In this document: positions 1,333-43,898 of the stretch, piece by piece
How positions within the stretch are numbered: the first letter of the stretch is position 1
Layout of the letters: each line of letters starts with the position of its first letter
DNA from: Candidatus Binatia bacterium
GTDB lineage: Bacteria; Desulfobacterota; Binatia; UBA12015
Direction of reading: 5' to 3'
DNA length: 64,000 nt
Assembly (NCBI GenBank): GCA_046327915.1
Contig: JAXLXO010000004.1
Location: forward strand, 311,064-375,063
The notes under the pieces: generated by a model
Told to the model about the DNA's origin: nothing
What the model saw: only the letters and a program-made list of their open reading frames with translations
Database searches by the model: none
Program-made: the position numbers and the translations under genes

Positions 1333-1341
1333 GCGCAGGCG

Positions 1342-2954: not shown

Positions 2955-3003
2955 GCGGCCGCCTCTTGCCCACGGACGCGCCACTCGCATAGAGCGGCTC
3001 TCC

Positions 3004-3690: not shown

Positions 3691-3849
3691 AGGCAAACGC
3701 AGAATTTCGCCGGGCGCGCGCTTGAGACGCGTTCCGCGCCCGTGATAGCGCCGCCACACCGCTTCGCCGCAGGCGACGGTTTCCACGTTCCGGAGGGAGT
3801 CGGGAGGAGTCGAACCAGCAACGCACGCCAGAAGAACAGGGGGAAGCCA

Positions 3850-5175: not shown

Positions 5176-5258
5176 GTCCGGCACGACGAAGCGCCGTGTC
5201 CCGGCTGCCCCGCGCGGGCAGCCGGGGCCGCGCCACCCTTCGCGCCGCGGTCCGCCCC

Positions 5259-6026
5259 ATGCGCCTCTCCCGATCCGCCGCGGCGATGCTCCTGTCGCTG
5301 CTCCTCACCGTCACGGCGTGCGAGGAGAAGCAGCAGTCGCCAACCCCGCCGAATGCGGCGGAGCGCGCCGCTGCCGCGCGTGCAGCGAAGCCCGCCGCCG
5401 CCCCCGCGCAGCAGAACCGCGCGATGGGCACCGGCGAAGCGCGCGACCCGCAGCCGTTCACGCGCGAGCAGCGCCTGCTCGACGCCGTGCAGCGCAACGA
5501 CCGCCCGACCATCGAGCGCGCGCTCGAGCTCGGCGTCCCGGTCACGACGAAGGACGATCTCGGACGCGACGCGCTGCTGCTCGCGGCCAGCGACGCCGCC
5601 GACCTGGAGCTCGTCCGCTTCCTGCACGAGAAGGGCGCGCCGGTGGATCAGCCCGACGTGCAGCAGCGCGCCGCGATCAGCTTCGCGGCGGCGAACGGAC
5701 AGCTCGAGATCGTGCGCTGGCTCGCCGACAACGGCGCGCTCGCCGATCGTCCCGACTGGCTGCAGCGCACGCCGCTCTTCCACGCGTCGCTCGGCGATCA
5801 CGCCGAGGTGGTCGCCCTGCTGCTCGACCGCGGCGCGAACGCGAACGCGCGCGACCAGTTCGGCGACACGCCGCTGATCGTCGCCTGCGCGAAGGGCAAC
5901 GCCGCGACGGCGCAGCTGCTGATCGCGCGCGGCGCGGACGCGACGGCACGCGATCAGGAAGGACGCACCGCGCGCGAGCGCAGCGCACCGGGGATCGAGC
6001 CGTGCCTCGCGCTGCCGCAGGGCTGA
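5259..6026 (+). CDS. ankyrin-repeat lipoprotein
   Basis: Lipobox 'LTVTAC'. At least four ankyrin-like repeats (…TPLFHASLGDHAEVVALLLDRGANANARD…, …TPLIVACAKGNAATAQLLIARGADATARD…). Confidence 0.7.
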   Translation: MRLSRSAAAMLLSLLLTVTACEEKQQSPTPPNAAERAAAARAAKPAAAPAQQNRAMGTGEARDPQPFTREQRLLDAVQRNDRPTIERALELGVPVTTKDDLGRDALLLAASDAADLELVRFLHEKGAPVDQPDVQQRAAISFAAANGQLEIVRWLADNGALADRPDWLQRTPLFHASLGDHAEVVALLLDRGANANARDQFGDTPLIVACAKGNAATAQLLIARGADATARDQEGRTARERSAPGIEPCLALPQG

Positions 6027-6037
6027 GATCCAGCGCA

Positions 6038-7654: not shown

Positions 7655-9428
7655 CGCCCGGCCGGTCGGTGACCAGCGTGCCCTCGTCGACGCGATCGCG
7701 CGCCGTCGCGGGATTCGCCATCACTCCCGACACGTAGTCGCGCACCGTCACGCCCTGCGCGGCGAGCCCCGAGAACAGCGAGTCCGAGCGCAGCATGGTG
7801 TGGATCGAGCCGGTGTTCGCGGGCAGGAAGAAGTGGATGCCGGCCTGCCCGCGCTCGTCGCAGTAATCCGTCCGCAGCGCGTTGATCCACGCGTTCAGGT
7901 TCGGGAACAGCGTGGTGCTGCTCTGCGTCGAGTCGACCTGGTTCGAGAGGTTGAGGATGCGCTGCGCCGGCGTTCCCTCGAGACGCGCCGACGTGGCGGC
8001 CTCGATCACCGGACCGGAGCCGCAGTCGCCCGCGGTGCAGTACGGCGGCAGCGTCTGGAACATGTTCCATCCGGTCGGCGCACCGTAAAGGGCCGCGAGC
8101 GCCGCGAGTCCCGGTCCGAGCGCGAGCCCCGAGTCGGGAACCGCGGTCGTGTTCACCCAGCGCAGCTCGTCGAGGACGTCGTGGTAGTTGTACATCACGC
8201 CGTAGCCGCCGGCGCTCTCGCCGGCGAACATCACCCGCAGCCGGTCGGGGTGCCAGCCGTCCGGATCGGACGCCTCGGTCGCGGACCACAGCACGTCGCG
8301 CACGTAGCGCAGCGCCGCGCGCGTGTTGACCGCGCCGTAGCGGTGCACCGTGATCGACGGGAACGCCTGCGTGACGCCGCCGCCGATGTGCAGGTCCTGC
8401 GTGCAGTACGGCATGAACACCATCGTCCAGTCGTTGAACGGATTGACGCTCGGGTTGGTCGACAGGTAGCCGCCGCCGGGCTGGCCTTCGTCGGCCCTGA
8501 ACAGGCCGGGGCTGGTGGTGCTGCAGTCGCTCTCGAAGAGGCAGACGCCGCCGCCCTGCATGTCGGTCACGACGCGCGTCAGCGGCGAGCCGGACGGCGC
8601 GAGGCGCAGCCAGAACGCGTACGGGCTGCCGTCGCCGCAGCGCGTGCCCCACGTCGCCTCGTCGAGCGTGACCTTCACCCACTGGCCGCGCGCCGGCACG
8701 GGCGCGTCGGCGCGCGGGCCGCAGCGCAGGTCGAGCGGACCCGCGTCGCCGTGCGCGGTGGCCGTCAAGCACTTCGACTGGGCGGTCGCGCGCGCCGCGT
8801 GCTGCTGCGGCGAGACGTGCAGCAGCGCGTCGAGCGACGTGCACTTGGCCGCGATCTTCGCCGCCGCCTTCTGCTCGAGCGACGCGACCTTGTTCGCGAC
8901 CGTGACTGCGTTGCACACGCCGCCCGTGTGCGTCTTCCGGATGCAGGAGCCCTGCGTCCGGTACGCCGACACCAGCAGCTTGCCGCTCTCGGCGAAGGCC
9001 GCGTCGAGGCACGACGCGTCGGCGGGCGCGGCGCCGTCGAGCAGTGCTGCCTGCGGACCGCCGAAGGTGCGCGCCGCGATCGTCGCGGCCTCGCCGAGGC
9101 AGGCTTCGCGCGCGCGGTCGAGCAGCGCCGCGGCGGTCACGACCGTCCCGTAGCCCGCGGCCTGCGCGACCGCGTCGGTCGCGCAGCGCGCGCCGATCGT
9201 GCGCTGGAGACCGTCGAGGGCGCGCGTGACGCCGGGATCGTTCGGCGCGCATGCCGCGCCGGTGCCGGAGTAGCAGCGCCGCGTGAGCGCGTTCACGCGC
9301 GACACGCAGCTTGCGAGCGCCGACGCGACCCCGGCCTCGCAGCGCTGGCCCGGAGTGGCCGCGAGAACCGACGACGGCAGGACGACGAGTGCGGCGAGGA
9401 AACCGATGGTGCGGGTGACGGCGTGCAT
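7620..9428 (-). CDS. PAE/Notum-family esterase with N-terminal Cys-rich domain (paralog of 3850..5175)
   Basis: Signal peptide MHAVTRTIGFLAALVVLPSSVLAA. Motifs 'MQGGGVC', 'YCTQDLHIGGG' and nucleophile 'GESAGG'. Confidence 0.7.
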   Translation of the reverse strand: MHAVTRTIGFLAALVVLPSSVLAATPGQRCEAGVASALASCVSRVNALTRRCYSGTGAACAPNDPGVTRALDGLQRTIGARCATDAVAQAAGYGTVVTAAALLDRAREACLGEAATIAARTFGGPQAALLDGAAPADASCLDAAFAESGKLLVSAYRTQGSCIRKTHTGGVCNAVTVANKVASLEQKAAAKIAAKCTSLDALLHVSPQQHAARATAQSKCLTATAHGDAGPLDLRCGPRADAPVPARGQWVKVTLDEATWGTRCGDGSPYAFWLRLAPSGSPLTRVVTDMQGGGVCLFESDCSTTSPGLFRADEGQPGGGYLSTNPSVNPFNDWTMVFMPYCTQDLHIGGGVTQAFPSITVHRYGAVNTRAALRYVRDVLWSATEASDPDGWHPDRLRVMFAGESAGGYGVMYNYHDVLDELRWVNTTAVPDSGLALGPGLAALAALYGAPTGWNMFQTLPPYCTAGDCGSGPVIEAATSARLEGTPAQRILNLSNQVDSTQSSTTLFPNLNAWINALRTDYCDERGQAGIHFFLPANTGSIHTMLRSDSLFSGLAAQGVTVRDYVSGVMANPATARDRVDEGTLVTDRPGVNPFACALPAP

Positions 9429-9500: not shown

Positions 9501-11633
9501 TCAGGACGACGGGGCCCCGGCGACCGGCGCGCGAACATCGACCTCCAGCTCCGCGGTCAGCGGTACGACGGGATCGGATCCCTGTCCGGCGCGGAGCGCC
9601 AGCACGCGTCGTCCGACGCTCCCGGGCGGGGCGATCCACGCCGCGAGCGACACCGTGGCGCCGCGCGGAACGTCGTCCGGCAGCGAGATCCGGCGCCACG
9701 CGGCCGGGGGTGTGCCGTCGGTCGGCCGCCACGCGTACCAGACCGCGAACCGTCGATCCGGATCGACCGCCGTCCCGGGCCACGTGACTTCGCCGTCGTT
9801 GCGCAGCTCGAGGACGACGCGCCCCTCGCGATGCGGTGACAGCGCTCCCTGCACCGAGGCCTTCAGCACACCCCGCGGCGTGTCGATCGTGGCAACCGGC
9901 GCCCCGGTGACGGTTCGCGCGCGGTCCTGCAGGCCGGGACAGGCGCCGCTTCGCGGCAGCGTGACCCGGTAGAGATCGTCGCCCCGATCGCCGTCCGCAC
10001 CGGGAAAGGTCTTCTCCAGCTGCACGCCGGGAGCATCGCGCCACGCGTTGCGACGTGCGGCCGGCGCGTCGTGCACGAGGATCCATCCGGGGTCGGCGCA
10101 GTCGACGAGAATCCGGAGCGACTCGGGCGACGGCAGCTGCCGCGCGTGCTCGAGCAGGAACGCGCTGCCCGGCGGCATGTATCCGGTGTAGCCGTTCACC
10201 AACGGCAACCAGTGATGGGTGCTTGCGACCATCGCGCGCGCATCGGCGAGGCGGAAGACGCGATCCGTCGGCAGCTCGAGCAGCGGACGCCCGCCACCGT
10301 TCTCCGCGAGCCAGCGATGCGCGGGCGACAGCTGCGCGCGCGTCGCGACCGGGTAGGCCGCGAGATGCCACGGCGACGCGACAACCCAGCTGGCGCAGAC
10401 GAGGACCCCGACGGCGCCCGCGACGACGCGCGCCGCTCCCGGACGCCACGCGGCGAGCCTGCGCTCCGCATCCGCGACGCCGTACGCCGCGAGCGCGCTG
10501 AGCGCGAAGCTCGTCACGATCGCGAAGCGCACGGGCACGCGCAGGCTGCGAAAGCCCGGCACCAGCGCGTACAGCCACGCGTACGGTGCTAACCAGCCGC
10601 CGAGGAATCCTTCCGGTCCCGCAGCGAGCAGCACCCCGGCCGCGGCGGCGAGCACGAGAAACGCGATGCGCAGCCGGTCGCGCTCGCACCGGGAGCCGCG
10701 CGGCACGAGCCGCGACGACAGGAAGGCGATCGCGAGCAGCGCCGTGCCCCAGCCGACGAAGCCGCCGAGGACGTTCATCGGCCTGCCGACCTCTTCCCAC
10801 GGCGTCGCGAGCGACCGCGTGAGCTCGGTGGTGAGTCCGCCGGACGCGCGCGCGAGCACGTACGGGACCGACACGGGCACGACCACCAGCAGCGGACCCG
10901 CGACCGCGATCGCGAGCGCGCGCCACGCGCCCGCTGCGCGAGGCCGCGTCCACTCGACCACGATCCACGTGACGACGAACGACCCGACGACGACATACGC
11001 GGCGTAGCCGAGGTAGTACGAGCACAGCACCTGCACCGCGAGCAGCGCCGCGGTCGCGATCGCCGTGCCCGTGCTTCCGGTCGCAACGGCACGATCCAGC
11101 CCCCACGCGATCATCGGCAGATACTGCACCTGCATCAGATGCGCGCGGCCCAGATCGCCGCGCCACGGCGCGAAGCCGAACGCGAATCCGGCCGCCCACG
11201 CCGCCGCGGTGCTGCCGGTCCAGCGTCGCGCGAGAAAGTGCATCGCGAGCGCCGACAGCACGAAGCTCGCCAGCGTCAGGACGTTCAGGGCGAGAATCGC
11301 GTCGTCGGTCGCGAGCCAGACCGGCAGGAAGATCGGCATGTCTCCGAGCAGATGCTCGGACCTCGCCACCACGTGGGGCGATGGATGCAGGACGTTGCCG
11401 TCGAACAGCGTCAGCGGCGCGGACGTGAGCGCCCGCCCCACCCACGACAGAATCCAGATCACCAGGTGGAGATCGTTCAGCAGACTCGGCGACGACGTGA
11501 CGACGTGGTCGGCGGCGACCGACGCGAGCGGCCAGGTGAACCAGACCGCCGCCGCCGTGTAGACCAGCAGCGGGAGCCCCGCATCGCGCAGCAGGGTGCG
11601 AGTCGTGCGCGCAGTGCCCGGCGGCCGGCTCAC
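9501..11633 (-). CDS. large polytopic membrane protein, possible YfhO/PMT-like glycosyltransferase
   Basis: 710 aa. About 12 predicted TM helices in the N-terminal 430 aa, then a soluble C-terminal domain. No catalytic motif recognised, so the function is a guess. Confidence 0.45.
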   Translation of the reverse strand: MSRPPGTARTTRTLLRDAGLPLLVYTAAAVWFTWPLASVAADHVVTSSPSLLNDLHLVIWILSWVGRALTSAPLTLFDGNVLHPSPHVVARSEHLLGDMPIFLPVWLATDDAILALNVLTLASFVLSALAMHFLARRWTGSTAAAWAAGFAFGFAPWRGDLGRAHLMQVQYLPMIAWGLDRAVATGSTGTAIATAALLAVQVLCSYYLGYAAYVVVGSFVVTWIVVEWTRPRAAGAWRALAIAVAGPLLVVVPVSVPYVLARASGGLTTELTRSLATPWEEVGRPMNVLGGFVGWGTALLAIAFLSSRLVPRGSRCERDRLRIAFLVLAAAAGVLLAAGPEGFLGGWLAPYAWLYALVPGFRSLRVPVRFAIVTSFALSALAAYGVADAERRLAAWRPGAARVVAGAVGVLVCASWVVASPWHLAAYPVATRAQLSPAHRWLAENGGGRPLLELPTDRVFRLADARAMVASTHHWLPLVNGYTGYMPPGSAFLLEHARQLPSPESLRILVDCADPGWILVHDAPAARRNAWRDAPGVQLEKTFPGADGDRGDDLYRVTLPRSGACPGLQDRARTVTGAPVATIDTPRGVLKASVQGALSPHREGRVVLELRNDGEVTWPGTAVDPDRRFAVWYAWRPTDGTPPAAWRRISLPDDVPRGATVSLAAWIAPPGSVGRRVLALRAGQGSDPVVPLTAELEVDVRAPVAGAPSS

Positions 11634-13369: not shown

Positions 13370-13846
13370 CTAGAACCAGCTCGTGTCCGTCATCGCGCCC
13401 GGCACCAGTCGCGCGGTGACGTCGTGCGCCTCGTCGCGCACCATGATGTCCTTGCCGTCGGTCCAGACGCGCACGCGCTGCTTCGGGTAGCCGTCGATGT
13501 CGAGCTTCAGGTAGCCCTCGCCGTCGACCGCGTACGTGCCGGTCTTGCGCGTCCTCTGGTCGTCGATGAAGCGCACGGTCGCGGTGAAGCTGCCGTCGCT
13601 GCCGAAGCGGACGCCGACGCCGCTGATCACGAAGAAGAGCGCGCCGCCGGCGTCGAGCGTGTGCCACGCCGTGCCGGGAAGCGCGGGCAGCACGTTCGAC
13701 TCCTGTGCGACGGCGGTGGCGTCCATCGCCGGCGCGCGCAGCACCGCCGCGCACACGAGCGCGAAAAGCACGATCCGTGCAGCCGTCCTCGCGGCGGCGC
13801 GCGCCGGTCGATCGACGGCAGGGAAGGAAGTCCGGTGGTCGGTCAT
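13370..13846 (-). CDS. hypothetical small secreted protein (last gene of nar supercluster)
   Basis: 158 aa. N-terminal hydrophobic signal ([19 protein letters not shown]) and normal composition. ATGA overlap with the TehA-like gene. The Arg-rich 5' extension of ORF 13370..14725 was rejected. Confidence 0.5.
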
Positions 13847-14907
13847 TGCGCGCTCCTCGCGTGCTGTCGAAGGATGGTGTTCAGCATTCCCGCGAACGTC
13901 ACCAGCCACGCCGCGAGCGCCACGAAGACGAACACGCGCGGGATCGCGAGCAGGAACGGCTCGTCGATCGCGTGCGCGAGCTTGAACGTGCACGTGGTGT
14001 ACATGCCGAGCGGGAAGACCATGCCCCAGTAGCCGGGCTCGTACGCGAGCGGGTAACGCCGCACGACGTGGCGCCAGACGCCCATCACGAACAGCATCGG
14101 GATCCACCACGTCGCCGTCGCCCAGAACAGCAGCGTGAGTCCCTTCAGGAAGGGCAGCAGCGACGCGAGCAGCGGATCGGACGCCGCGTTGCCGATCACG
14201 ATCGCGCCGGCCAGCGTCGAGATCGCCATCGCGCCGGTGTCGATCCAGTACGCGGGGCCGGCGTCGGCCGGCTCGAAGCGCAGGAACATGTAGCGGAAGA
14301 AGATCAGCCCGATGATCCAGACGTAGAGCATGCCGCCCGCGAGCCACAGGGCCAGCGTCAGGAACAGCACCTGGTGCTCGTATCCGGGGAAACGGTCGTA
14401 CACCTGGCCGCCGAGCAGGGACACTCCCTGCGTCGCGACGACCGCGACCAGCCATCCGCCGTTGAGCCCGCGCTCGATCGGCGGCTTCTGCTCGTCCACG
14501 GTGAGCAGGGCCAGCACGCCGTAGAGCAGCAGCACCCAGAGCACCAGCGCGAGCAGCCAGAGCGCGGTCGCGATCTCCGGCACGTGCACCACGATCAGCA
14601 GCTGCGCACCGAGCACGCACGTCCCGGCGACGATCGTGAAGTAGCCGACGCCGCGCGCGTGATTGCCGAGGTCCGCGCGCACCGCCGCCGGATACCGCAC
14701 GAGGCGCGCGAGGTAGAGCACCCACAGCACGACGTAGGCGATCACGTTGACGGCGAGCAGCGCGACCGCGACCGGCACGAAGCCGAGCAGCTTGCTCGCG
14801 ATCGAGACGATCCCGGTCGCCATGACCAGCGCGAAGTACGCGGGGTTGAGCGTCTCGAGCCCGCTCGCGGCGGCCTGTGCCTTGCCGCGATCGGCGGCGG
14901 CAGCCAT
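13843..14907 (-). CDS. TehA/TDT-family (SLAC1-like) anion channel/transporter
   Basis: 354 aa, about 10 TM helices, very hydrophobic, with a typical TDT-family helix pattern (…[13 protein letters not shown]…, …[11 protein letters not shown]…, …[13 protein letters not shown]…). The start codon is 5 nt after the cytochrome c stop. Confidence 0.65.
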
Positions 14908-14912
14908 CGCGC

Positions 14913-15281
14913 TCACGGCGTCGCTCCTGCCGTCCTGCGGAATGCTTCGAGGTACGACAGCAGCGCGTCGAGCTGCTCGCCGGACAGCGTGCCGCCGTAC
15001 GCCATCATCGCCGAGCCCGGGACGCCGTTCAGGATCGCGCCGCGCAGCCGCGCGGCATCCGCGTCGCGCCAGAATCCGGCCGATGCGAAGTCGGGCGGCC
15101 TCGGGATCATGGTCACGCCGGCCGGACCGTCGCCTCGTCCACCGTCGCCGTGGCAGAACGCGCACCGGCTGCGGAACAGATCGCCGCCGAGCGCGAGCTG
15201 CGCCGGATCGGCGGTCTGCGCGTCTGCGGTGTGCGCGACGGCCGACACGACCAGCAGCGCCAGTGCGACGCGGCGGATCAC
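14913..15281 (-). CDS. class I mono-haem cytochrome c
   Basis: 'CAFCHG' haem-binding motif, distal Met region 'GSAMMAYGG', signal peptide. GTG start with a GTGA overlap on the ppiC-like stop. Confidence 0.7.
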
Positions 15282-16093
15282 GAACACCCCTGCGTGCCGC
15301 ACTGGCACGACGACTCGCCGTGCGCGGCGTCGACCGTGCGTGCTTCGGCGTCCAGACCCTCGACGTCCGCGGCGGCCACCAGATCGCGCACGAATTCCGC
15401 GGCCGCGGCGCGCCAGCGGCGGTCGAGCAGCCGCTCGCGCGCGAGACCGCGCGCCTCGCGCCACTCGAGCGGACGTCCCGGCGCACGCTCGTCGAGGCGC
15501 ACCACGTGGTAGCCGAAGCGCGTCCGCACCGGCGCGGGACAGACGTCGCCAGGCGCGAGGTGCTGCAGCACCGCCGCGAACTCCGGAACCGTGTCGCGCG
15601 CCGTCACCTGCCCGAGGCTGCCGCCGCTCTGCGCCGACGAGCAGCCGGAACGCTCGCGCGCGAGGTCGGCGAAGCGCGACGGATCGCGCGCCAGCTCCGC
15701 GATGCACTCGGCCGCGGCGCTGCACGCGCGCTCGAGCGCCGCGGAATCCGACGGCGGCGCGAGGAAGAGGATGTGCGACGCCTCGAACAGGTCGGGCGTG
15801 CGGTCGAGCTCGGGATGGCTGTCGTGCTCGGCGCGGCAGTCCGACTCGCTCGGCTCGTCGACCGCGACGTGGCGCACGACCAGCTCGTCGATCGCGCGCT
15901 GGCAGGCGCTCTCGTCGCGCTCGTCCGCGGCGACCAGCCCTTCGCGCGCGGCCGTCTGGCGCAGCACCTCGCGCACCACCAGAGCGCGCGCCGCGCGCAG
16001 CTCCGCGTCCTCGCGGCTCGCCGCGCGATGGTACTGCATCTCGCGCAGCACCTCGTCGTCGCCGATCGCGACCGCGTTCACGCGGAGCGCCAT
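15278..16093 (-). CDS. PpiC/parvulin-type peptidyl-prolyl isomerase (NifM-like)
   Basis: C-terminal rotamase domain '…[55 protein letters not shown]'. Overlaps the narI 3' end by 16 nt. Confidence 0.65.
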
Positions 16094-16812
16094 CCCGGTC
16101 CCTTCCGCGTCCGCGCACGATACGGCTCGCGCACGATCTGGTAGCGGCGGCCGAGGTACCACACCGGCGCGCTCCAGATGTGGATCAGCCGCGTGAACGG
16201 CACCAGCAGCACCACCGTCAAGCCGAGGACGATGTGCAGCTTGTAGACCAGCGGGATCGGCAGCAGCAGCTCCCACGCGTCGGCGCGGAACGTCACCAGG
16301 CGCTGCGCCCAGAACGCGGCGTGAAGCAGCGTCTGTCCCGACACGTGGTCCGCCCACGAGGCCGGCAGCGTCGCGAGCCCGATCGCCAGCTGCACCCAGA
16401 TGATCACGAGGATCAGCACGTCGGACCAGCTGCTCGAGCGCAGCACGCGCGCGTCGAAGAGCCTTCGGTGCAGCAGGATCGTCGTGCCGATGAAGCAGAT
16501 GGTGCCCGAGATGCCGCCGGCGAAGACCTCGAGGACGGCGTGCTCCTGCACGGTGAAGCCGACGCGCGTGTAGAGCGACACCGGCGTCAGCATGCCGGCG
16601 ACGTGGCCGAGCACCAGCGCGATCGCGGCGACGTGGAAGATGTTGCTGCCCCACACCAGCTGCCGCTTGCGCAGCATCTCGCTCGACCCGCTGCGCCACG
16701 TGTACTGCTCGCGCTCGAAGCGCAGCCAGCTGCCGACGAGGAACACCGTCACGCAGACGTACGGGTAGATGCCGAACAGGAAGCGCTGCAGCAGCTCGCT
16801 CGCGACGCTCAC
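16078..16812 (-). CDS. narI: respiratory nitrate reductase gamma subunit
   Basis: 244 aa, 5 TM helices, conserved 'FLFGIYPYV' N-terminus and His ligands. GTG start overlapping the narJ stop (GTGA). Confidence 0.85.
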   Translation of the reverse strand: MSVASELLQRFLFGIYPYVCVTVFLVGSWLRFEREQYTWRSGSSEMLRKRQLVWGSNIFHVAAIALVLGHVAGMLTPVSLYTRVGFTVQEHAVLEVFAGGISGTICFIGTTILLHRRLFDARVLRSSSWSDVLILVIIWVQLAIGLATLPASWADHVSGQTLLHAAFWAQRLVTFRADAWELLLPIPLVYKLHIVLGLTVVLLVPFTRLIHIWSAPVWYLGRRYQIVREPYRARTRKGPGWRSA

Positions 16813-17480
16813 GAGCACCTCCCCGCGCGCGTCGCGGCCGCAGCGTCGGCCGCTCCCGCGCTGGTGAAGTCGACCACCGGCTCCTCCCACTCGCGGTCGA
16901 GGCGCTCGAGCTCGCTTTCCTCGGTCGCGTCGACGGCCTGCTCGACGTCGCGCAGCGCCGCGCGATCGACGGCGTCCCCCGCGAGATCGATCAGCGCCTC
17001 GAGAACCGCCGCGTACGGCGACAGGCGCAGCTCGAGCTTGCGCCGCAGCGCCGCGAGGATCGGCGCCGCGTCGTCGAGCAGCGGGCGCGCGACGCTCTCC
17101 GGCGCGAGCGACAGGAACTCGCACAGCAGCGGCAGGTAGTCGGGCAGCTCGGTGGTCGACGGCTCGAGGCCGTTCTCGACGTACAGGCGGCGCAGGTCGA
17201 CCATCGCCTGGCCGCGCTCGCGCGCCTCGCCGTGCACGTGCTCGAAGAGGTGCAGCGAGCACGCGCGGCCGTGATCGAAGGTCGCGACCCACGCCTCCTC
17301 GAGGTCGAGCAGGGAGCCTTCGCGGAATCCCGCGAGGAGTCGCGCGACGCCGTCGCGCGCGTGCGCGGAGAGCCGCGGCTCCGCGGCGACGCGACGCTCG
17401 ATCTCGTCGACCGCGGCGAGCAGGTCGCTGCTCGGGTAGAGCAGCAGCGCGCCCAGCACCTTGCAGCTCGCGAGGCTCAC
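16809..17480 (-). CDS. narJ: nitrate reductase molybdenum cofactor assembly chaperone
   Basis: 'MSLASCKVLGALLLYPSSDLL…' is a NarJ/TorD-family N-terminus. GTG start overlapping the narH stop (GTGA). Confidence 0.8.
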   Translation of the reverse strand: MSLASCKVLGALLLYPSSDLLAAVDEIERRVAAEPRLSAHARDGVARLLAGFREGSLLDLEEAWVATFDHGRACSLHLFEHVHGEARERGQAMVDLRRLYVENGLEPSTTELPDYLPLLCEFLSLAPESVARPLLDDAAPILAALRRKLELRLSPYAAVLEALIDLAGDAVDRAALRDVEQAVDATEESELERLDREWEEPVVDFTSAGAADAAAATRAGRCS

Positions 17481-19000
17481 ATGACCTCGCTCGGCGTCCG
17501 GCGCCCGGCGCCGCCGCCGAAGAAGACGCTGCCGCGCGAGTCGGGCGCGTCGCAGCCGTTGCCGAAGGTGAAGCCGCACGCGCCGCGCAGCTCGTAGGCG
17601 TCCTCCGCGAGCTCGCGATGGCTGGTCGGGATCACGAAGCGGTCCTCGTAGTTCGCGATCGCGAGCAGGCGGTACATCTCCTCGATCTGCTGCCGCGACA
17701 GCCCGACGCGCGCGAGTACCTCGTCGTTGTCGCGTCCCTCGACGTGGCGGTCGCGCATGAACACCCGCATCGCGAACATGCGCTCGAGGGCGCGCACGAT
17801 CGCGGGCTCGTCGCCGGCCGAGAGCAGGTTCGCGAGATAGCGCACCGGGATGCGCAGCTTGCGGACGTCGGGCAGCGCGCCGTCGAAGCCGATCGCGCCC
17901 GACTCCGCGGACGCCTGGATCGGGCTCAGCGGCGGGCAGTACCAGACCATCGGCAGCGTCCGGTACTCGGGGTGCAGCGGGAACGCGATGCCCCACTCGA
18001 CGGCGAGCTTCCACACCGGCGAGCGCTGCGCCGACTCGATCCACGCCTCGGGAACGCCCGCGTCGCGCGCCGCCTGCTGCACGTCGGGATCGTTCGGGTC
18101 GAGGAACATCTCGAGCTGGGCCGCGTGCAGGTCGCGCTCGTCCGGGGTCGCCGCCGCCTGCTCGATGCGGTCGGCGTCGTAGAGCATGACGCCGAGATAG
18201 CGGATGCGTCCGACGCAGGTCTCCGAGCACACCGTGGGCAGCCCGGACTCGATGCGCGGGTAGCAGAAGATGCACTTCTCGGCCTTGCCCGAGCGCCAGT
18301 TGTAGTAGATTTTCTTGTATGGACAGCCCGACAGGCACATGCGCCAGCCGCGGCACTTGTCCTGGTCGATGAGGACGATGCCGTCCTCCTCGCGCTTGTA
18401 GATCGAGCCCGACGGACACGACGCGACGCAGGTCGGGTTCAGGCAGTGCTCGCACAGGCGCGGCAGGTACATCATGAACGTGTTCTCGAACTGCGCGACC
18501 ATGTCCTTCTCGACGCCTTCGAGGTTGGCGTCGCGACTGCGGTCGGCGAACGCGCCGCCGAGGTCGTCCTCCCAGTTCGCGCTCCACGTCACGCGCTCCA
18601 TGTGCTTGCCGGTCAGCAGCGAGATCGGGCGCGCGACCGGCACGTCCTCCGACTCCGGCGCGGACTGCAGCGTGCCGTAGTCGAAGGTGTACGGCTCGTA
18701 GTAGTCGTCCACTTCGGGCATGTGCGGGTTCGCGAAGATCTGCGCGAGCACGCGGAAGCGTCCGCCGAGACGCGGCACGAGCTTGCCGTCGGCGCGCCGC
18801 ACCCAGCCGCCGCGCCAGCGGCCCTGGTTCTCCCACTCCTTCGGGTAGCCGACGCCGGGCTTGGTCTCGACGTTGTTGAACCACGCGTACTGCACGCCGT
18901 CGCGGTTGGTCCACACGTTCTTGCAGGTCACCGAGCAGGTGTGGCAGCCGATGCACTTGTCGAGGTTCAGCACCATCATGATCTGGGCACGAACCTTCAT
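17477..19000 (-). CDS. narH: respiratory nitrate reductase beta subunit
   Basis: 508 aa, with four FeS cysteine clusters (CIGCHTCSVTC, CEHCLNPTCVASC, CRGWRMCLSGC, CIFCYPR). ATGA overlap with narG. Confidence 0.9.
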   Translation of the reverse strand: MKVRAQIMMVLNLDKCIGCHTCSVTCKNVWTNRDGVQYAWFNNVETKPGVGYPKEWENQGRWRGGWVRRADGKLVPRLGGRFRVLAQIFANPHMPEVDDYYEPYTFDYGTLQSAPESEDVPVARPISLLTGKHMERVTWSANWEDDLGGAFADRSRDANLEGVEKDMVAQFENTFMMYLPRLCEHCLNPTCVASCPSGSIYKREEDGIVLIDQDKCRGWRMCLSGCPYKKIYYNWRSGKAEKCIFCYPRIESGLPTVCSETCVGRIRYLGVMLYDADRIEQAAATPDERDLHAAQLEMFLDPNDPDVQQAARDAGVPEAWIESAQRSPVWKLAVEWGIAFPLHPEYRTLPMVWYCPPLSPIQASAESGAIGFDGALPDVRKLRIPVRYLANLLSAGDEPAIVRALERMFAMRVFMRDRHVEGRDNDEVLARVGLSRQQIEEMYRLLAIANYEDRFVIPTSHRELAEDAYELRGACGFTFGNGCDAPDSRGSVFFGGGAGRRTPSEVM

Positions 19001-22000
19001 CTTGCTGCTCCCTGCGCCTCGTCGCGCGCCGGTCCGCTGCCCCAGCGCGGCTCGCCGAGCTTGCGGATGACGACGGTCTCGTCGCGGTTCGCGCCGATCG
19101 TTCCGTAGTAGTTCCAGCCGTAGCTCAGGTGCGCGTAGCCGCCGATCATGTGCGTCGGCTTCGGGATCACGCGCGTCACCGAGTTGTGGATGCCGCGCGT
19201 TCCGGTCGCCTGCGTCTGCGGCGTGGCCACCAGCTTCTCCTGCGCGTGGTACATCATGCAGGTGCCGCGCATGACGCGCTGGCTGACGATCGCGCGCGCC
19301 GCGACCGCGCCGTTCACGTTCACCGCCTCGATCCAGTCGTTGTCGGCGATTCCCGCCTCGCGCGCCTCGTCCTCGTTGAGCCAGATCACGGGGCCGCCGC
19401 GCGCCAGCGTGAGCATCAGCAGGTTCTCGGTGAACGAGCTGTGGATCGACCACTTCTGGTGCGGCGTCAGGAAGTTCAGCACCAGCGTGCCGGGACCGCG
19501 CAGCTTCGGATCGCGCAGGTCGTCGAGAGCCAGCGTGTCGAGCGGCGGACGATAGGTCGCGAGCGCCTCGCCGAAGGCGCGCATCCACAGGTGGTCCTGG
19601 TAGAGCTCCTGCCGTCCGGACAGCGTGCGCCACGGGATCAGCTCGTGCACGTTGGTGTAGAACGCGGTGTAGCTGACGGTCTCGGAGTCGACGCCGCTCC
19701 AGATCGGCGACGTGATCACTTTTCTCGGCTGGGCCACGAGGTCGGCGAAGCGGATCACCTCCTCGCTGCGCGACGCCGCGAGGTGCCGGTGCTGCCGTCC
19801 CGTCTGGCGCTCGACCGACGCCCACGCGCGCACCGCGACCTGGCCGTTGGTCTCGGGCGACAGCGTCAGCACGGTCTCGCAGGCCTCGACGTCGCTGACG
19901 ATGCGCGGACGGTCGCGCGCGATCTCGTCGCCGCTGTCGCCGTTGAGCGCGCGCAGCATCGCGACCTCGTCGGTCGCCGGCCACGCGAAGCCCTTGGCGC
20001 CGATGCCGGGCTTGTCGACCAGCGGGCCGAGCGCCGTGAAGCGCGCGTACGTGTCCGGGTAGTGGCGCTCGACCACCGCGACGCCGGGCATGGTCCTGCC
20101 GGGCACGGGGTCGCACTCGCCCTTCTTCCAGTCCTTGACGTCGTACGGCTGCGCGAGCTCGCCGGGCGCGTCGTGCTGCACCGGTACGAGCACCGCGTCG
20201 TGCTCGACGCCGAGATGACCCGCGGTGCACTCGGAGAAGCGCCGCGCGATCCCCTTGAAGATCTCCCAGTCGGTGCGCGCCTCCCACACCGGATCGACCG
20301 CGGCGCCGAGCGGGTGCACGAACGGATGCAGGTCCGTCGAGCTGAGGTCGTTCTTCTCGTACCAGGTCGCCGCCGGCAGGACGACGTCGGAGTACATGCA
20401 CGTGCTCGACATGCGGAAGTCGAGCGTGACGAGAAGGTCGAGCTTGCCCTCGGGCGCGTCGCTCTCCCACTCGATCTCGCGCGGCGGCTCGAGGCCGCGC
20501 TCGACGACGTCGCGCGCCTGCACCGCGTTCTTCGCGCCGAGCAGGTGCTTCAGGAAGTACTCGTGACCCTTCGCGCTCGAGCCGAGCAGGTTCGCGCGCC
20601 ACACGAAGAGCATGCGCGGGAAGCTGGTCGGATGGTCGGGGCGCTCGCTCGCGAGGCGCAGCGCGCCCGACTTCAGCGCGTCCGCGACGTGCGCGCCCGG
20701 CGTCGCGCCCGAAGCCGCGATGTCACGCCCCACCTGCAGCGGATTCTGCGCGAGCTGCGGCGACGTCGGCAGCCAGCCCATGCGCTCCGCGCGCACGTTG
20801 AAGTCGATCAGGCTGCCGCCCCAGTCGCCGTCGGGTGCGGTCGGCGACAGCATCTCCGCCGGCGTCACCGTCTCGTAGCGGAACTGGTCGGTGTGCGCGT
20901 AGAAGTACGAGGTCGTGTTCATCTGGCGCGGCGGACGCGTCCAGTCGAGCGCGAACGCGAGCGTCGACCAGCCGACCAGCGGACGGATCTTCTCCTGCCC
21001 GACGTAGTGCGCCCAGCCGCCGCCGGGCTTGCCGACACAGCCGCACAGCACGAGCAGGTTGATGATCGCCCGATACGTCGTGTCGGTGTGGTACGCCTGA
21101 TTGACGCCGCAGCCGATGATGACCTTGGCGCGGCCATCGGTCTTCTCGGCGCTGTGCGCGAACTCGCGTGCGAGGTTGATCGCGATGCGGCGGTCGACGC
21201 CGGTGATCGCCTCCTGCCACGCCGGCGTGAACGGACGATCGGCGTCGTCGTACGTCGCCTCGTCGCCGGGCTCGAGTCCGCGCGGGACGCCGTAGCTCGC
21301 CAGCATCAGGTCGAGCACCGTCGCGACCGGAACCTCGCCGTCGCGCAGCTTCAGGCGACGCACCGGAACGCTGCGCTCGACCACGTGATCGGGCGCCGAC
21401 GCCTCGAAGCGCGGGAACGCAACGTTGGCGAAGCCGTCGCGGCGCTCCGCGACGCTCAGCGCGAGCTCGACCTCGTGGCCGTCGCGCGCGTCGCGCTGCT
21501 CGAGGTTCCATTTCTCCCCCGGGCTCCAGCGGAAGCCGATCGAGCCGTTCGGCACCACGACGTCGCCGCTCTTCGCGTCGAGGCCGACCGTCTTCCAGTC
21601 CGGGTGCTCGTCCTGCGCGAGCGCGCCGTCGAAGTCGGCCGCGCGCAGCATTCGGCCGGGAACCCAGCGATCCCCTTGCCGGTCGAGACGCACCAGCATC
21701 GGCAGGTCGGAGAAGCGGCGCGCGTAGTCGACGAAGTACGGCACCTGCCGGTCGACCCAGAACTCCTTCAGCACGACGTGCCCGACCGCGAGCGCGAGCG
21801 CCGCGTCGGTGCGCTGCCGCGGCCGCACCCACAGGTCGGCGAACTTCGCCGCCTCGTTGAAGTCCGGTGAGACGACGACGGTCTTGGTGCCCTTGTAACG
21901 AGCCTCGACGTAGAAGTGCGCGTCGGGCGTGCGCGTCTGCGGCACGTTCGAGCCCCACAGCACGAGGAACGCGGCGTCGTACCAGGCGGCGCTCTCGGGC

Positions 22001-22710
22001 ACGTCGGTCTGCTCGCCCCAGGTCATCGGCGAGCTCGGCGGCAGGTCGCAGTACCAGTCGTAGAAGCTGAGGCAGGTGCCGCCGATCAGCGACAGGAAGC
22101 GCGTCCCGGCTGCGAACGACACCATCGAGAACGCGGGGATCGGCGTGAAGCCCGCGACGCGGTCCGGACCCCACTTCTCGATCGTGTGCACGGCGGCGGC
22201 GGCGATCATCTCGTTCGCCTCCTGCCACGACACGCGCACGAAGCCGCCGCGTCCGCGCACGCGCTTGTAGGACGCCGCGCGCTCCGGATCGTCGGCGATG
22301 CTGCGCCACGCCTCGACCGGATCCATCGCCGCGCGCGCCGCGCGCCACAGCTCGACCAGACGGCGGCGCACCAGCGGATACTTGACGCGGTTTCCGCTGT
22401 ACAGGTACCAGGACGCGCTCGCTCCGCGCGGACAGCCGCGCGGCTCGTGGTTCGGCAGGTCCGCCCGCGTGCGCGGGTAGTCGGTCGCCTGCATCTCCCA
22501 GGTGACGAGCCCGTTCTTGACGAACACCCGCCAGCTGCACGAGCCGGTGCAGTTCACGCCGTGCGTCGAGCGCACGATCTTGTCGTGGTCCCAGCGGTTC
22601 CGGTAGCCGTCCTCCCAGCTGCGGTCCTCGCGCGTGACGACGCCGAGATCGCCGGCGAACGTGCCGACGTTCTTGCGGAAGAACAGCAGACGGTCGAGCA
22701 GCAGGCTCAC
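18997..22710 (-). CDS. narG: respiratory nitrate reductase alpha subunit
   Basis: 1237 aa. N-terminus 'MSLLLDRLLFFRKNVGTFAGD…WEDGYRNRWDHDKIVRSTHGVNCTGSCSW' matches the NarG FeS0 H-x3-C-x3-C motif. Collinear with NarG throughout. Confidence 0.9.
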   Translation of the reverse strand: MSLLLDRLLFFRKNVGTFAGDLGVVTREDRSWEDGYRNRWDHDKIVRSTHGVNCTGSCSWRVFVKNGLVTWEMQATDYPRTRADLPNHEPRGCPRGASASWYLYSGNRVKYPLVRRRLVELWRAARAAMDPVEAWRSIADDPERAASYKRVRGRGGFVRVSWQEANEMIAAAAVHTIEKWGPDRVAGFTPIPAFSMVSFAAGTRFLSLIGGTCLSFYDWYCDLPPSSPMTWGEQTDVPESAAWYDAAFLVLWGSNVPQTRTPDAHFYVEARYKGTKTVVVSPDFNEAAKFADLWVRPRQRTDAALALAVGHVVLKEFWVDRQVPYFVDYARRFSDLPMLVRLDRQGDRWVPGRMLRAADFDGALAQDEHPDWKTVGLDAKSGDVVVPNGSIGFRWSPGEKWNLEQRDARDGHEVELALSVAERRDGFANVAFPRFEASAPDHVVERSVPVRRLKLRDGEVPVATVLDLMLASYGVPRGLEPGDEATYDDADRPFTPAWQEAITGVDRRIAINLAREFAHSAEKTDGRAKVIIGCGVNQAYHTDTTYRAIINLLVLCGCVGKPGGGWAHYVGQEKIRPLVGWSTLAFALDWTRPPRQMNTTSYFYAHTDQFRYETVTPAEMLSPTAPDGDWGGSLIDFNVRAERMGWLPTSPQLAQNPLQVGRDIAASGATPGAHVADALKSGALRLASERPDHPTSFPRMLFVWRANLLGSSAKGHEYFLKHLLGAKNAVQARDVVERGLEPPREIEWESDAPEGKLDLLVTLDFRMSSTCMYSDVVLPAATWYEKNDLSSTDLHPFVHPLGAAVDPVWEARTDWEIFKGIARRFSECTAGHLGVEHDAVLVPVQHDAPGELAQPYDVKDWKKGECDPVPGRTMPGVAVVERHYPDTYARFTALGPLVDKPGIGAKGFAWPATDEVAMLRALNGDSGDEIARDRPRIVSDVEACETVLTLSPETNGQVAVRAWASVERQTGRQHRHLAASRSEEVIRFADLVAQPRKVITSPIWSGVDSETVSYTAFYTNVHELIPWRTLSGRQELYQDHLWMRAFGEALATYRPPLDTLALDDLRDPKLRGPGTLVLNFLTPHQKWSIHSSFTENLLMLTLARGGPVIWLNEDEAREAGIADNDWIEAVNVNGAVAARAIVSQRVMRGTCMMYHAQEKLVATPQTQATGTRGIHNSVTRVIPKPTHMIGGYAHLSYGWNYYGTIGANRDETVVIRKLGEPRWGSGPARDEAQGAAR

Positions 22711-22838: not shown

Positions 22839-25172
22839 TCACGCCGGAGTCTTCGTCGTGTCGCCGTACGTGCGGGACGAGAACGGCTCGTTGGTCGCTC
22901 CCGTCAGCTCCTCGAGCCGGCTGCGCAGCCAGCGCGGCGGCTCGCCGAAGCTCAGCCTCCGCAGCGCGACCGGCGACGACTTGAAGTGCGGCTGCTTGCT
23001 GACAGCATCGCGCGCGTACCACGTGTGCGTGTTGGCCGACTGGTCGGCGCCGCCGTAGTGGAACGGCGCGAACACCTCGCCACGGCGCACCGTGTCGACC
23101 ACCATCGCGATCGCCTCCGAGCGTCCGTGCGGCGAACGGATCTCGACCGCGTCGCCGAGCTCGATGCCGAGACCCGCCGCGTCCTCGGGGTGGATCTCCA
23201 CGTACACGGCCGGGGCGTGCGCGTTCAGCACGTCGGAGCGCGCCGTCTTGGTGCGGGTGTGGAAGTGGTAGACGAGCCGGCCGGTGTTGAGCAGCAGCGG
23301 ATACTCGTCGGAGACCGGATTCGGGTGCGCGTGCCAGTGCACCGGGCGAAGGATCGCCTTGCCGGCCGGATCGGCGCGCCGGTACTCCGCCGGCGACGTG
23401 CCGCGCCCGGTGTAGAAGTCGACGCCGAAGCTCTCGCAGGCGTCCGCGTCGGTCCAGAAGTGCAGATCCTCGTAGAGCCTCTCCGCCCCGCGCGGGTACT
23501 TCTCGTTGCAGGGCCAGCGCACCGCGCCCATCTCGAGGATCAGCTCGTACGTCATGCCGGAGTAGTCGCAGCCGCGGCCCTTCGAGACCTTGCGCCACTC
23601 GTCGAACGCCGCGCGCGGCTCCTGGTACGGCAGCAGCGACTTGCCGTCGCGGTCCTTGAAGCCGAGGCGGTTCGCGATCTCGACGAAGACGTCGAAGTCG
23701 CTGCGCGCCTCCCCCGGCGGGTCCACCGCCTTGAGCAGCAGATTGACGCTGCGATCCGCGTTGGTGACGCAGCCGCTCTTCTCGCCCCACATCGCCGCGG
23801 GGAAGTAGATGTCGGCGAAGTCGACCGTCTCGGCGTCGACGAACGGATCCTGCACGACGAGGAAGAGCTTGTTCAGGATCGCCGCCGTCCGGTTGCGGTC
23901 GGGCACGCTGACGATCGGATTGGTTCCGATCACCCACATGAACTCGATCTCGCCGCGCTCGGCCATCTCGAGCATGGTGAGGATGTCCTTCGGGTCCTCC
24001 GGCCGGAAGCGGTCGAAGTCGATGTTCCAGATCTCGCACAGCTCGCGCATCTGCGGCTCGCTGTGCGGATTCCGGTACGCGGGATACGAGCCGCCGGCTC
24101 CGGTCTCGCGGTTGTTCATCGCGGACGGCTGGCCCGCCATGAGCAGCGGACCGGTGCCCGGCTTGCCGATGGCGCCGGTCAGCAGGTGGACGACGTTGAT
24201 CAGCGACGACGCCGCGGTCGCGCCGATGCTCTGGTAGAAGCCCATCAGCGCGGTCGACACCATCTTCGGCGTCGTTCCGATCCACTCCGCCGCGGTCTCC
24301 AGCTGCGCCTGCGGGATGCCGCAGATCGCGGCGACGCGGTCGGGCGGATACTCGCGCGCCACGGCCGCGACGTCGTCGAACCCGATCGTGTGCTGCGCGA
24401 CGAAGTCACGGTCGACCTGGCCGCGCGCGATCAGCAGGTGGATGATCCCGTTCATCAGCGCGACGTTGGTTCCCACCTTCACCTGCAGATGAAGGTCGGC
24501 GCCCTGCCGAACCGTCGGGGTGGTGCGCGGATCGACCACGATGATCCGTCCGCCGTTCTTCTGCCGCGCCGACAGCATGCGCTCCCAGAGCACCGTCTGC
24601 GTCTCGGCGACGTTGTGTCCGTAGAGGCAGAGCAGGTCGGCCTGGTCGACGTCGGCATAGGATGCGACCGGCCCGTCCGAGCCGAAGGTCGCCGTCAGCG
24701 CCGTCGCCGCGCTCGACGTGCAGAGCCTGGTGTTGCCGTCGATGTTCGACGACTGCAGCCCGCCGCGCCACATCTTCGCCAGCGCGTAGAACTCCTCGAG
24801 CATCAGCTGGCCGGAGCTGTAGCAGGCGAGATTCTGGTGCCCGGACGCCCACGCCGCGCGAAACTTCTCCACGAAGAAGTCCATCGCCTCGGACCAGCCG
24901 ACCGGCTGCAGCGGGTCGGACTTCCGGCGGCGGATCATCGGGGTCGTGCCGCGCCGCTTCGCACCGTTGGCGATCCAGCAGTGCTCGCCCTTCGGGCCGA
25001 GATGTCCGGCGTTGACGGGATGGCTAGTCGTGCCGCGAACGCCGACGATCGCGCGGTCCTTCACCGCGATCTCCAGGCCGCAGCCGTTCGAGCACAGCAG
25101 ACAGGCGGAGTGAACCCAGGCGTCGGGCTCTCCCTGGATGCCGACGTTCACGTCTCTTCGAGGCTGCATCAC
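22839..25172 (-). CDS. cytoplasmic MopB-family nitrate reductase catalytic subunit (assimilatory NasA/NarB-type)
   Basis: 777 aa, no Tat signal. N-terminal 4Fe-4S 'CLLCSNGCG'. NasA/NarB-like segments 'FMWVIGTNP', 'NTGRLVYHFHTRTKT' and 'FAPFHYGG'. Confidence 0.7.
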   Translation of the reverse strand: MMQPRRDVNVGIQGEPDAWVHSACLLCSNGCGLEIAVKDRAIVGVRGTTSHPVNAGHLGPKGEHCWIANGAKRRGTTPMIRRRKSDPLQPVGWSEAMDFFVEKFRAAWASGHQNLACYSSGQLMLEEFYALAKMWRGGLQSSNIDGNTRLCTSSAATALTATFGSDGPVASYADVDQADLLCLYGHNVAETQTVLWERMLSARQKNGGRIIVVDPRTTPTVRQGADLHLQVKVGTNVALMNGIIHLLIARGQVDRDFVAQHTIGFDDVAAVAREYPPDRVAAICGIPQAQLETAAEWIGTTPKMVSTALMGFYQSIGATAASSLINVVHLLTGAIGKPGTGPLLMAGQPSAMNNRETGAGGSYPAYRNPHSEPQMRELCEIWNIDFDRFRPEDPKDILTMLEMAERGEIEFMWVIGTNPIVSVPDRNRTAAILNKLFLVVQDPFVDAETVDFADIYFPAAMWGEKSGCVTNADRSVNLLLKAVDPPGEARSDFDVFVEIANRLGFKDRDGKSLLPYQEPRAAFDEWRKVSKGRGCDYSGMTYELILEMGAVRWPCNEKYPRGAERLYEDLHFWTDADACESFGVDFYTGRGTSPAEYRRADPAGKAILRPVHWHAHPNPVSDEYPLLLNTGRLVYHFHTRTKTARSDVLNAHAPAVYVEIHPEDAAGLGIELGDAVEIRSPHGRSEAIAMVVDTVRRGEVFAPFHYGGADQSANTHTWYARDAVSKQPHFKSSPVALRRLSFGEPPRWLRSRLEELTGATNEPFSSRTYGDTTKTPA

Positions 25173-25413
25173 CTTCTCCGTGTTCGTCCTGCGGGACGAC
25201 GCTTCTCGACGACGCCGGGGACGGCGTCGAGAGGTCTTGCAACGCGGGCCCCGGATCTCTCCGCCGACCTTCGGCCGAGTCTTCGCCCGGCGTGAGCGCC
25301 TTGTATTGCGGAATCGCGCGGCGATCTTTCAGAATCCTGCGCGACGTCGAGGCGGCCGCGAGAGATGCGAAGCTGGAACCGGCTCCACGCGGCGTGCTAC
25401 AGCGGCGTCCCCG

Positions 25414-43791: not shown

Positions 43792-43898
43792 TTCGTGTTC
43801 CCTCCGCCGGTCCGAGCCCGTCCGGCCGCGCCGTCCTAACAGCTCTGTGAAGATCCAGTCAACAGACTTGTCAGGACGCCGCCGCGGTCGCTTCCGCG

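Follow-up and report, generated by a model that had tools for sequence, protein, structure and literature searches.

Here we describe a nitrate reductase (Nar) operon in a 64-kb stretch of DNA from a Candidatus Binatia bacterium (hereafter the window), in which narI, the gene for the membrane subunit, is followed by genes for a parvulin-type peptidylprolyl isomerase (PPIase), a mono-haem cytochrome c, and a SLAC1/TehA anion channel or transporter. The seven genes lie on the minus strand in the order narG-narH-narJ-narI-parvulin-cytochrome c-SLAC1/TehA. The explanation that we favour for the whole arrangement, though by no means firmly, is that the parvulin would act in maturation of the enzyme, that the cytochrome would be linked to NarI, and that the SLAC1 protein would serve as a carrier. 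The pairing of narI with a parvulin has been published, and the window adds one example of it together with neighbourhood statistics; the less ordinary and new part of this Nar operon organisation is the tail made up of cytochrome c and SLAC1, along with a NarI::cytochrome c fusion in a related lineage.

Every junction in the seven-gene chain is an overlap of 4 or 16 nucleotides, as read directly from the sequence. The 4-nt overlaps are ATGA between narG and narH and GTGA between narH and narJ and between narJ and narI; narI and the parvulin gene share 16 nt at 16078-16093, with the narI stop codon TGA at 16080-16078 and the parvulin ATG at 16093-16091. The parvulin stop and the cytochrome c start meet in a GTGA at 15278-15281, and the cytochrome c and SLAC1 genes meet in another at 14913-14916, the third overlap past narI. 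The operon is a translationally coupled unit of seven genes, of which SLAC1/TehA is the last recognised. The original prediction for this DNA had named a PpiC-like gene and a cytochrome c gene as a coupled pair inserted after narI. Both identities are confirmed by Pfam, and the overlaps that it placed at 15278-15281 and 16078-16093 are present; it assigned the parvulin a GTG start where the codon is ATG, it overlooked the SLAC1/TehA gene at 13843-14916, along with the lack of narK among the scanned genes and the Nitrobacter parallel (both below), and the coupling is not special to the pair, since overlaps span all seven genes.

The cytochrome c gene (14913-15281, minus strand) starts with GTG and encodes a class I mono-haem protein of 122 residues that matches Pfam Cytochrome_CBB3 (3.4e-11) and Cytochrom_C (2.5e-07), both above their cutoffs. 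The haem motif CAFCH (residues 40-44; 15150-15164) is the sole CxxCH in the protein, which carries a Sec signal peptide with no lipobox Cys. Automatic gene callers chose an alternative start on near-identical metagenome contigs, the GTG at 15308, which would yield 131 residues; alignment of homologues favours the 122-residue form. The sequence RCAFCHG, the Met ligand M92, and ~36 positions of the cytochrome are invariant among the nar-linked homologues. The closest homologues of the cytochrome (50-63% identical by tblastn) are all nar-linked, in the loci that we number L082, L085/L086, L087/L088, and L148, and the cytochromes of L082, L085, L087, and L148 have a lipobox, so that they would be membrane-tethered. 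Other searches with the cytochrome added little: a word-indexed protein search returned two matches, and a metagenome scan with the cytochrome alignment was dominated by generic cytochromes, the new entries among the matches listed being L092, which duplicates the L086 contig, and one divergent locus, L118. The L118 locus (1197-8522) carries a divergent narGHJI, with NarG 44% identical to that of the window, immediately followed by a gene with two cytochrome c domains (di-haem), and is thus a further nar operon with a c-type cytochrome behind narI.

The original prediction had hinged on whether the order narI-parvulin-cytochrome c is conserved, and it is found in relatives. The closest relatives of the parvulin, ~50-52% identical, are known solely from metagenome contigs, and the tail is present wherever enough downstream DNA is available. 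One pair of contigs, L085/L086, has the full order narG-H-J-I-ppiC-cytc-SLAC1; L087/L088 has narI-ppiC-cytc-SLAC1, and L082 has ppiC-cytc-SLAC1 with GTGA at both junctions. A further contig, P0002, has narH-J-I-ppiC and then a truncated open reading frame (ORF) overlapping by 4 nt. The G+C content of these contigs ranges from 58% to 73%, indicating that several lineages are represented.

When the SLAC1 protein was used as the starting point for searches, we recovered further nar operons with closer Nar enzymes (NarG 72-75% identical to that of the window), in which the genes after narI vary. In L144, a ClC gene on the opposite strand is followed by narGHJI-SLAC1 with neither parvulin nor cytochrome; its 63-nt narI-SLAC1 spacer (9938-10000) contains tandem heptamers, with GTCCCAA occurring about four times. 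In L148, the order is narI-cytc-SLAC1, and the cytochrome starts 16 nt inside narI. The same coupling site appears in the window: narI ends in codons for a conserved ...WRSA* tail, and the next gene starts 16 nt inside narI, at 16078-16093 in the window and 917-932 in L148. The shared start register forces an (M/V)ALR N-terminus, MALR in the parvulin of the window and VALR in the L148 cytochrome. This pattern suggests that genes have been exchanged at this point with the coupling site left intact.

In L146/L147, narG-H-J is followed by a gene for a 350-residue NarI::cytochrome c fusion, then by SLAC1 and a nos cluster. The fusion consists of NarI, an Arg-rich linker, a hydrophobic segment (WIWIALLALISSGC), and a C-terminal cytochrome domain that is 52% identical to the cytochrome of the window. 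The C-terminus of E. coli NarI is cytoplasmic. Given that topology and the added hydrophobic segment, the haem domain of the fusion would be periplasmic. Literature searches returned nothing relevant on NarI-cytochrome c fusions, on TehA with narI, or on Binatota with narG. The cytochrome gene keeps its place after narI, its product would be membrane-tethered in most lineages, and in one it is fused to NarI; together, these features point to a cytochrome that partners NarI on the periplasmic side.

We propose that the exported cytochrome would most likely work at the periplasmic face of NarI, near the distal haem b, giving Nar a c-type haem as an exit or entry point for electrons. Quinol electrons passing through NarI could in this way reach periplasmic nitrite, nitric oxide (NO), or nitrous oxide (N2O) reductases. 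Alternatively, the cytochrome c pool could be the source of the electrons. A role of this general kind has been proposed for the di-haem NarC of Thermus.

Textbook Nar is a three-subunit quinol:nitrate oxidoreductase, and the NarC-containing enzyme of Thermus is, to our knowledge, the sole well-studied exception. NarC, a membrane cytochrome with two haems, is required for NarG to mature and gave an interaction with NarI in two-hybrid tests; the proposal is that it replaces complex III in supplying electrons to Nir and Nor, and mesophiles are said to lack it in their nar operons (PMC7694296). Like NarC, the cytochrome of the window is encoded in a nar operon and is predicted to be a periplasmic c-type protein; NarC interacts with NarI in the two-hybrid tests, and a homologue of the window cytochrome is fused to NarI in L146/L147, with most relatives predicted to be tethered. 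In contrast, NarC has two haems and is encoded by the first gene of narCGHJIKT, whereas the window cytochrome has one haem and its gene comes after those for NarI and the parvulin; what lies upstream of narG in the window is a gene for a different molybdoenzyme. The window cytochrome also comes from a mesophilic soil lineage, and the two are compared here by description only. The earlier idea that the cytochrome links Nar to the periplasm as NarC does is well supported by its place beside narI in several divergent lineages and by the fusion to the C-terminus of NarI in one. With its single haem and its position after narI, the window cytochrome is not of the NarC type in architecture, but it may work like NarC.

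The rival that survives best holds that the cytochrome is an ordinary soluble carrier for nitrite, NO, or N2O reductases, fed by the cytochrome bc1 complex and co-induced with Nar, with no NarI contact. Consistent with this, the signal peptide of the window protein looks cleavable and has no lipobox, and the protein is a generic class I cytochrome whose nearest solved relatives are of the CcoP, c6, and c552 types. The surroundings of two related operons also fit such a carrier: downstream of the L146 operon is a nos cluster that has a cytochrome c of its own, and nirS lies 5 kb downstream in L148. However, L146/L147 encode NarI and a homologue as one in-frame fusion, four lineages carry a lipid anchor, and the gene keeps a fixed place after narI or the parvulin with overlapping starts, the L148 start lying 16 nt inside narI. 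In addition, no nir, nor, or nos gene was found among the genes scanned in the 64-kb window. On this evidence, we regard a soluble carrier with no tie to NarI as rather unlikely, and we retain a cytochrome that partners NarI as the preferred reading.

The parvulin gene (15278-16093, minus strand) encodes a nar-associated, PpiC/NifM-like foldase of 271 residues. The original prediction had depended on a match to the Rotamase family, and the protein does match it: PF00639 covers residues 107-201 (window 15491-15775) with an E-value of 8.7e-20 and a score of 72 bits (cutoff 21.7). The protein lacks a signal peptide and is therefore predicted to be cytoplasmic. Among 19 aligned parvulins, H107, C151 (within the motif S149-x-C-x-S153), and H196 are invariant, and we take these to be the Pin1-type active-site residues. 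A QxH motif (Q20 and H22, mostly QYHPA) and Cys86-Arg87 are also invariant in this alignment. The AlphaFold2 model has a mean predicted local distance difference test score (pLDDT) of 92.2, and its top Foldseek matches, which take in nearly the entire protein, are SurA, PEB4, and PrsA (E-values from 1.5e-12 to 1e-8 over 235-300 aligned columns). In the predicted architecture, the N- and C-termini together form a helical chaperone domain, into which a parvulin domain, predicted to be catalytically intact, is inserted. The predicted fold with its inserted parvulin domain is common to SurA, PrsA, and PEB4; these are extracytoplasmic proteins (periplasmic or lipoprotein), whereas the window parvulin has no export signal, and the identity is 14-22%. 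A Cys-rich C-terminal tail (15281-15316), absent from the 18 aligned homologues, is encoded across the upstream GTG that could be an alternative start of the cytochrome gene; residues 257-271 are disordered in the model (pLDDT < 50).

The comparison with NifM goes only part of the way. NifM is the top NCBIfam model for the parvulin, aligned over residues 26-230 and so including the region N-terminal of the parvulin domain, and both are accessory foldase genes within a metalloenzyme operon. However, the score of 50.4 bits is far below the TIGR02933 cutoff of 168.2, and the gene is linked to nar rather than to nif: its neighbours are nar genes, and no nif gene was present among the window genes scanned. 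By these measures, the protein is NifM-like and not a NifM orthologue.

Its relatives belong instead with nar. A protein search returned many parvulin relatives of ~265 residues, and a scan of 185,579 species-representative genomes, with a query reduced from the 19-sequence alignment, found a relative in 428 genomes; the closest of these is only 49% identical to the parvulin of the window. We sampled the neighbourhoods of the best 80 loci (L001-L080) from the 428 genomes, mostly from Alphaproteobacteria. Every one of the 80 has narI immediately upstream in the same orientation. On the other side of the parvulin, the following gene was checked in 70 of the 80 loci and encodes hemerythrin in 10, a MobA-like protein in 8, DUF2478 in 4, MobB in 3, and MoCF, MoeA, or MoaA in about 4. 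NnrS and NnrU were each seen once in this position among the 70 relatives. Molybdenum-cofactor genes, taken together the most frequent class beside the parvulin, fit a role around cofactor insertion or enzyme maturation; hemerythrin, DUF2478, NnrS, and NnrU may link it to NO or O2 sensing, or to repair. Neither cytochrome c nor SLAC1 follows the parvulin in the 80 genome loci (next gene identified in 70). In L034, a CxxCH motif does occur in a frame overlapping ppiC, but that frame is spurious and due to high GC, and the real next gene there encodes an FNT nitrite/formate channel.

The pairing is also documented in the literature. A ppiC gene is present in 52.3% of the narGHI operons of denitrifying Proteobacteria, for which a role in maturation was suggested (Bay et al, 2015; PMC4464133), and in Methylophaga, narI2 and ppi are co-transcribed (PMC4689864). 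PA3871 of P. aeruginosa is a gene of this kind. In the P. aeruginosa record, the order is narK2-narGHJI-peptidylprolyl isomerase-moaA, and the parvulin encoded there shares 37-40% identity with that of the window. Like the other nar parvulins of the PA3871 type (sometimes labelled nifM), the window protein is encoded directly after narI on the same strand, is similar in length and domains, and has no signal peptide; by sequence and position, it is probably a member of this widespread nar-operon family. It differs from them in its C-terminal tail, which is unique to it, and in what comes next, which elsewhere is usually moaA, mobA, another cofactor gene, or hemerythrin, and in the window is cytochrome c and SLAC1. 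The parvulin would most likely help NarG and NarH to fold or mature around cofactor insertion.

The core of the operon is narG-narH-narJ-narI. The catalytic alpha subunit gene narG (18997-22710, minus strand, as are all four core genes) encodes 1237 residues that match TIGR01580 with 1909 bits (cutoff 1084) and the Pfam domains Nitr_red_alph_N, Molybdopterin, and Molydop_binding; its N-terminal domain is, according to Pfam, the type of cytoplasm-facing Nar. An exact-sequence comparison matched NarG to NCBI MFN8599872.1, which belongs to a metagenome-assembled genome (MAG) of a Candidatus Binatia bacterium, and matched NarH and four more proteins of the window to other MFN85998xx entries on the same 392,722-bp contig. 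The iron-sulfur beta subunit is encoded by narH (17477-19000; 507 residues; Fer4_11 2.2e-37, Nitr_red_bet_C 2.3e-26), and the chaperone for molybdenum-cofactor insertion by narJ (16809-17480; 223 residues; Nitrate_red_del 6.3e-15). The di-haem b, quinol-oxidising membrane subunit is encoded by narI (16078-16812; 244 residues; Nitrate_red_gam 1.6e-70; NCBIfam narI 246 bits, cutoff 105), which starts with GTG behind a GGAGG and whose product has five hydrophobic segments in its hydropathy profile.

The window as a whole is 72% G+C, and G+C at third codon positions (GC3) is 0.87-0.97 across all seven operon genes. Recent insertion of the parvulin and cytochrome genes from a foreign source is disfavoured, given that their GC3 values of 0.92 and 0.87 are near the 0.94-0.97 of the operon; on the other side of this question, their ratios of synonymous to non-synonymous changes are weaker than those of narJ and narI (see below). 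A promoter and terminator scan of 13.2-25.4 kb gave nothing above shuffled expectation. An ORF for 133 residues (13370-13771, minus strand), 71 nt downstream of SLAC1 and with a GC3 of 0.97, has no Pfam or NCBIfam match and may be an eighth gene of the operon.

With a NarG of the cytoplasm-facing type, nitrate has to be taken up into the cell and nitrite has to be let out. No gene of the MFS/NarK type was found among the scanned predicted genes of the 64-kb window, which makes the SLAC1/TehA (TDT) protein encoded within the operon the obvious candidate carrier, with a ClC protein second. The SLAC1/TehA gene (13843-14916, minus strand; 357 residues) starts with GTG inside the GTGA overlap, with an alternative ATG at 14907. 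Its product is a full-length match to the SLAC1 family (PF03595, 5.1e-49, residues 20-342 of 354); it scores 97 bits with the NCBIfam tdt model, below the cutoff of 237 for that subfamily, and has no match among solved structures by sequence. Nitrate or nitrite as its substrate is suggested by its position in the operon. Other carriers occupy the spot downstream of nar-linked parvulins in other lineages, namely NarK12f in one (PMC4689864) and the FNT channel in L034. We propose that the SLAC1/TehA protein would be the nitrate/nitrite carrier of the operon in place of NarK.

The ClC-type channel or exchanger, a possible second anion carrier, is encoded upstream of the operon at 25138-26766 on the plus strand (start at 25138 or 25567; Pfam Voltage_CLC 8.1e-82; ClcA 323 bits against a cutoff of 350). 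ClC genes are also found near nar elsewhere, upstream on the opposite strand in L144 (1740-3086) and after the nos cluster in L146 (19524-20852), in what looks like a recurrent neighbourhood of Nar and ClC in lineages without narK.

SLAC1 homologues 57-70% identical to that of the window (tblastn) end the nar operons of L085, L087, L144, L146, and L148. Might cytochrome c and SLAC1 nevertheless form a separate two-gene unit that lies beside nar by chance and serves, for example, in handling tellurite, selenite, or chlorate? The SLAC1/TDT family is named for tellurite resistance, and close SLAC1 homologues occur beside another molybdoenzyme cluster (L149, L151) or alone (L145). However, all of the recovered cytochromes of this clade adjoin narI or a nar parvulin, with none paired with SLAC1 away from nar; in L144, SLAC1 directly follows narI with no cytochrome, showing that the two are not an obligate pair; and 4-nt overlaps run along the whole operon. 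These results make a chance neighbour improbable, and we continue with the reading in which cytochrome and SLAC1 belong to Nar.

The other molybdoenzyme cluster (L149 5673-11077; L151 5266-10119) encodes a molybdoenzyme of ~750 residues, a four-cluster ferredoxin (Fer4_11), a Rieske protein, DUF6755, and SLAC1. A full set of molybdenum-cofactor biosynthesis genes follows in L149, which comes from a Phycisphaerales MAG; L151 is from a second MAG. Its gene content suggests an uncharacterised oxyanion-type enzyme system sharing the SLAC1 partner.

Several observations weigh against the explanation that we favour. The fusion was seen in just one lineage, since L146 and L147 show no difference over 13.6 kb (100% identity), and so it counts as a single evolutionary event. 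Its hydrophobic segment, at ~13 residues, is short for a transmembrane helix. The window cytochrome has lost the lipobox and may be freely soluble. L144, the closest Nar relative (NarG 75% identical), has neither parvulin nor cytochrome, indicating that both are dispensable for Nar as such. Between the window and L081, which share 98.6% DNA identity, the ratio of synonymous to non-synonymous codon changes is 8:8 in the parvulin and 0:3 in the cytochrome c gene, compared with 6:1 in narJ and 5:3 in narI; the changes are few, and this at most suggests weaker constraint on the parvulin and the cytochrome. SLAC1 homologues at 55-70% identity are very numerous and spread over several phyla, and the presence of some beside the unrelated molybdoenzyme cluster of L149 and L151, and of one alone in the Binatia MAG L145, means that the family is not specific to Nar. 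Finally, the P. stutzeri parvulin is nearly dispensable in nitrate respiration under standard conditions: in random barcode transposon sequencing, Psest_3482 had a fitness of -0.3 in nitrate respiration, compared to -1.8 for narG, and of -2.6 under chromate stress (PMC5554334).

The role of the parvulin therefore looks conditional and not essential. The original prediction had cast it as a maturation factor for the reductase, as NifM is for the nitrogenase Fe protein. Maturation is consistent with the linkage to narI in 80 of 80 loci and with the adjoining cofactor genes; on the other side, the suggestion was already in print, the protein is not NifM, and the fitness effect in P. stutzeri is small.

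The accessory genes of the window have a parallel in nitrite oxidation. In Nitrobacter winogradskyi, nwi_0773-0780 encode a cytochrome c, nxrA, nxrX (a PPIase), nxrB, narJ-like and narI-like genes, narK, and a TDT transporter (PMC4786786). Matched by this published description, both clusters combine a cytoplasm-facing, Nar-type enzyme and narJ- and narI-like genes with a cytochrome c, a PPIase, and a TDT transporter. The Nitrobacter cluster differs in that it has narK, its nxrX lies between nxrA and nxrB, its cytochrome is upstream, and its enzyme is physiologically nitrite-oxidising. We take the parallel, drawn from gene content, as a possible lead.

That the window enzyme runs partly in reverse as a Nitrobacter-type nitrite oxidoreductase (NXR), with the cytochrome accepting electrons and the PPIase and TDT protein in the roles of NxrX and nwi_0780, would fit the matching accessory set (PMC4786786) and the same comparison drawn for NarC in a review of Thermus (PMC7694296), but it seems to us very improbable: NarG matches its equivalog model over the full length with 1909 bits (a score that does not separate NarG from Nitrobacter NxrA), the gene order is unlike that of Nitrobacter, a literature search gave no report of nitrite oxidation in Binatia, and nothing in the window provides a context of carbon fixation or of cytochrome oxidase. 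A bolder form of the explanation that we favour is possible, though we hold it doubtful. The Binatia-type Nar would in effect be a four-subunit NarGHI-c enzyme, its mono-haem cytochrome (free, lipid-anchored, or fused to NarI according to lineage) wired to the haem b of NarI on the periplasmic side. Such a Nar would be a quinol:cytochrome c branch point able to supply periplasmic denitrification enzymes independently of bc1 or, running backwards, to deliver electrons from nitrite oxidation into the cytochrome c pool, with a SLAC1-family channel standing in for NarK; its toolkit of PPIase, cytochrome c, and TDT transporter would be the source of the Nitrobacter-type NXR clusters.

Other genes of the window lie outside this argument. 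A second molybdopterin oxidoreductase of 770 residues with an N-terminal Fe4S4 domain is encoded 128 nt upstream of narG (22839-25151, minus strand); its best NCBIfam match is Fdh-alpha (472 bits), followed by NasC and NasA (404 and 384 bits), all below their cutoffs, and it shares 34-35% identity with the molybdoenzyme encoded ahead of SLAC1 in L149 and L151. At 46896-48932 (plus strand) is a gene for a 678-residue fusion of a tRNA-guanine transglycosylase (residues 16-364) to a C-terminal, MnmC-type Methyltransf_30 domain; the 90%-identity cluster of this protein includes others of similar length. Four sulfatase genes, a GH10 xylanase gene, and a TetR regulator are clustered at 38305-46279, suggesting that this Binatia genome encodes the breakdown of sulfated polysaccharides.

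The parvulin part of the operon matters less for what follows, given that its association with nar is published. The cytochrome and SLAC1 would matter more. If the cytochrome does partner NarI in this widespread, uncultured soil lineage, then electrons in soil denitrification could be routed around bc1 or diverge at Nar itself, and SLAC1/TehA proteins would gain a physiological substrate in bacteria. The same operon would then also offer a plausible evolutionary bridge from the nitrate-reducing Nar to the nitrite oxidoreductase of the Nitrobacter type.

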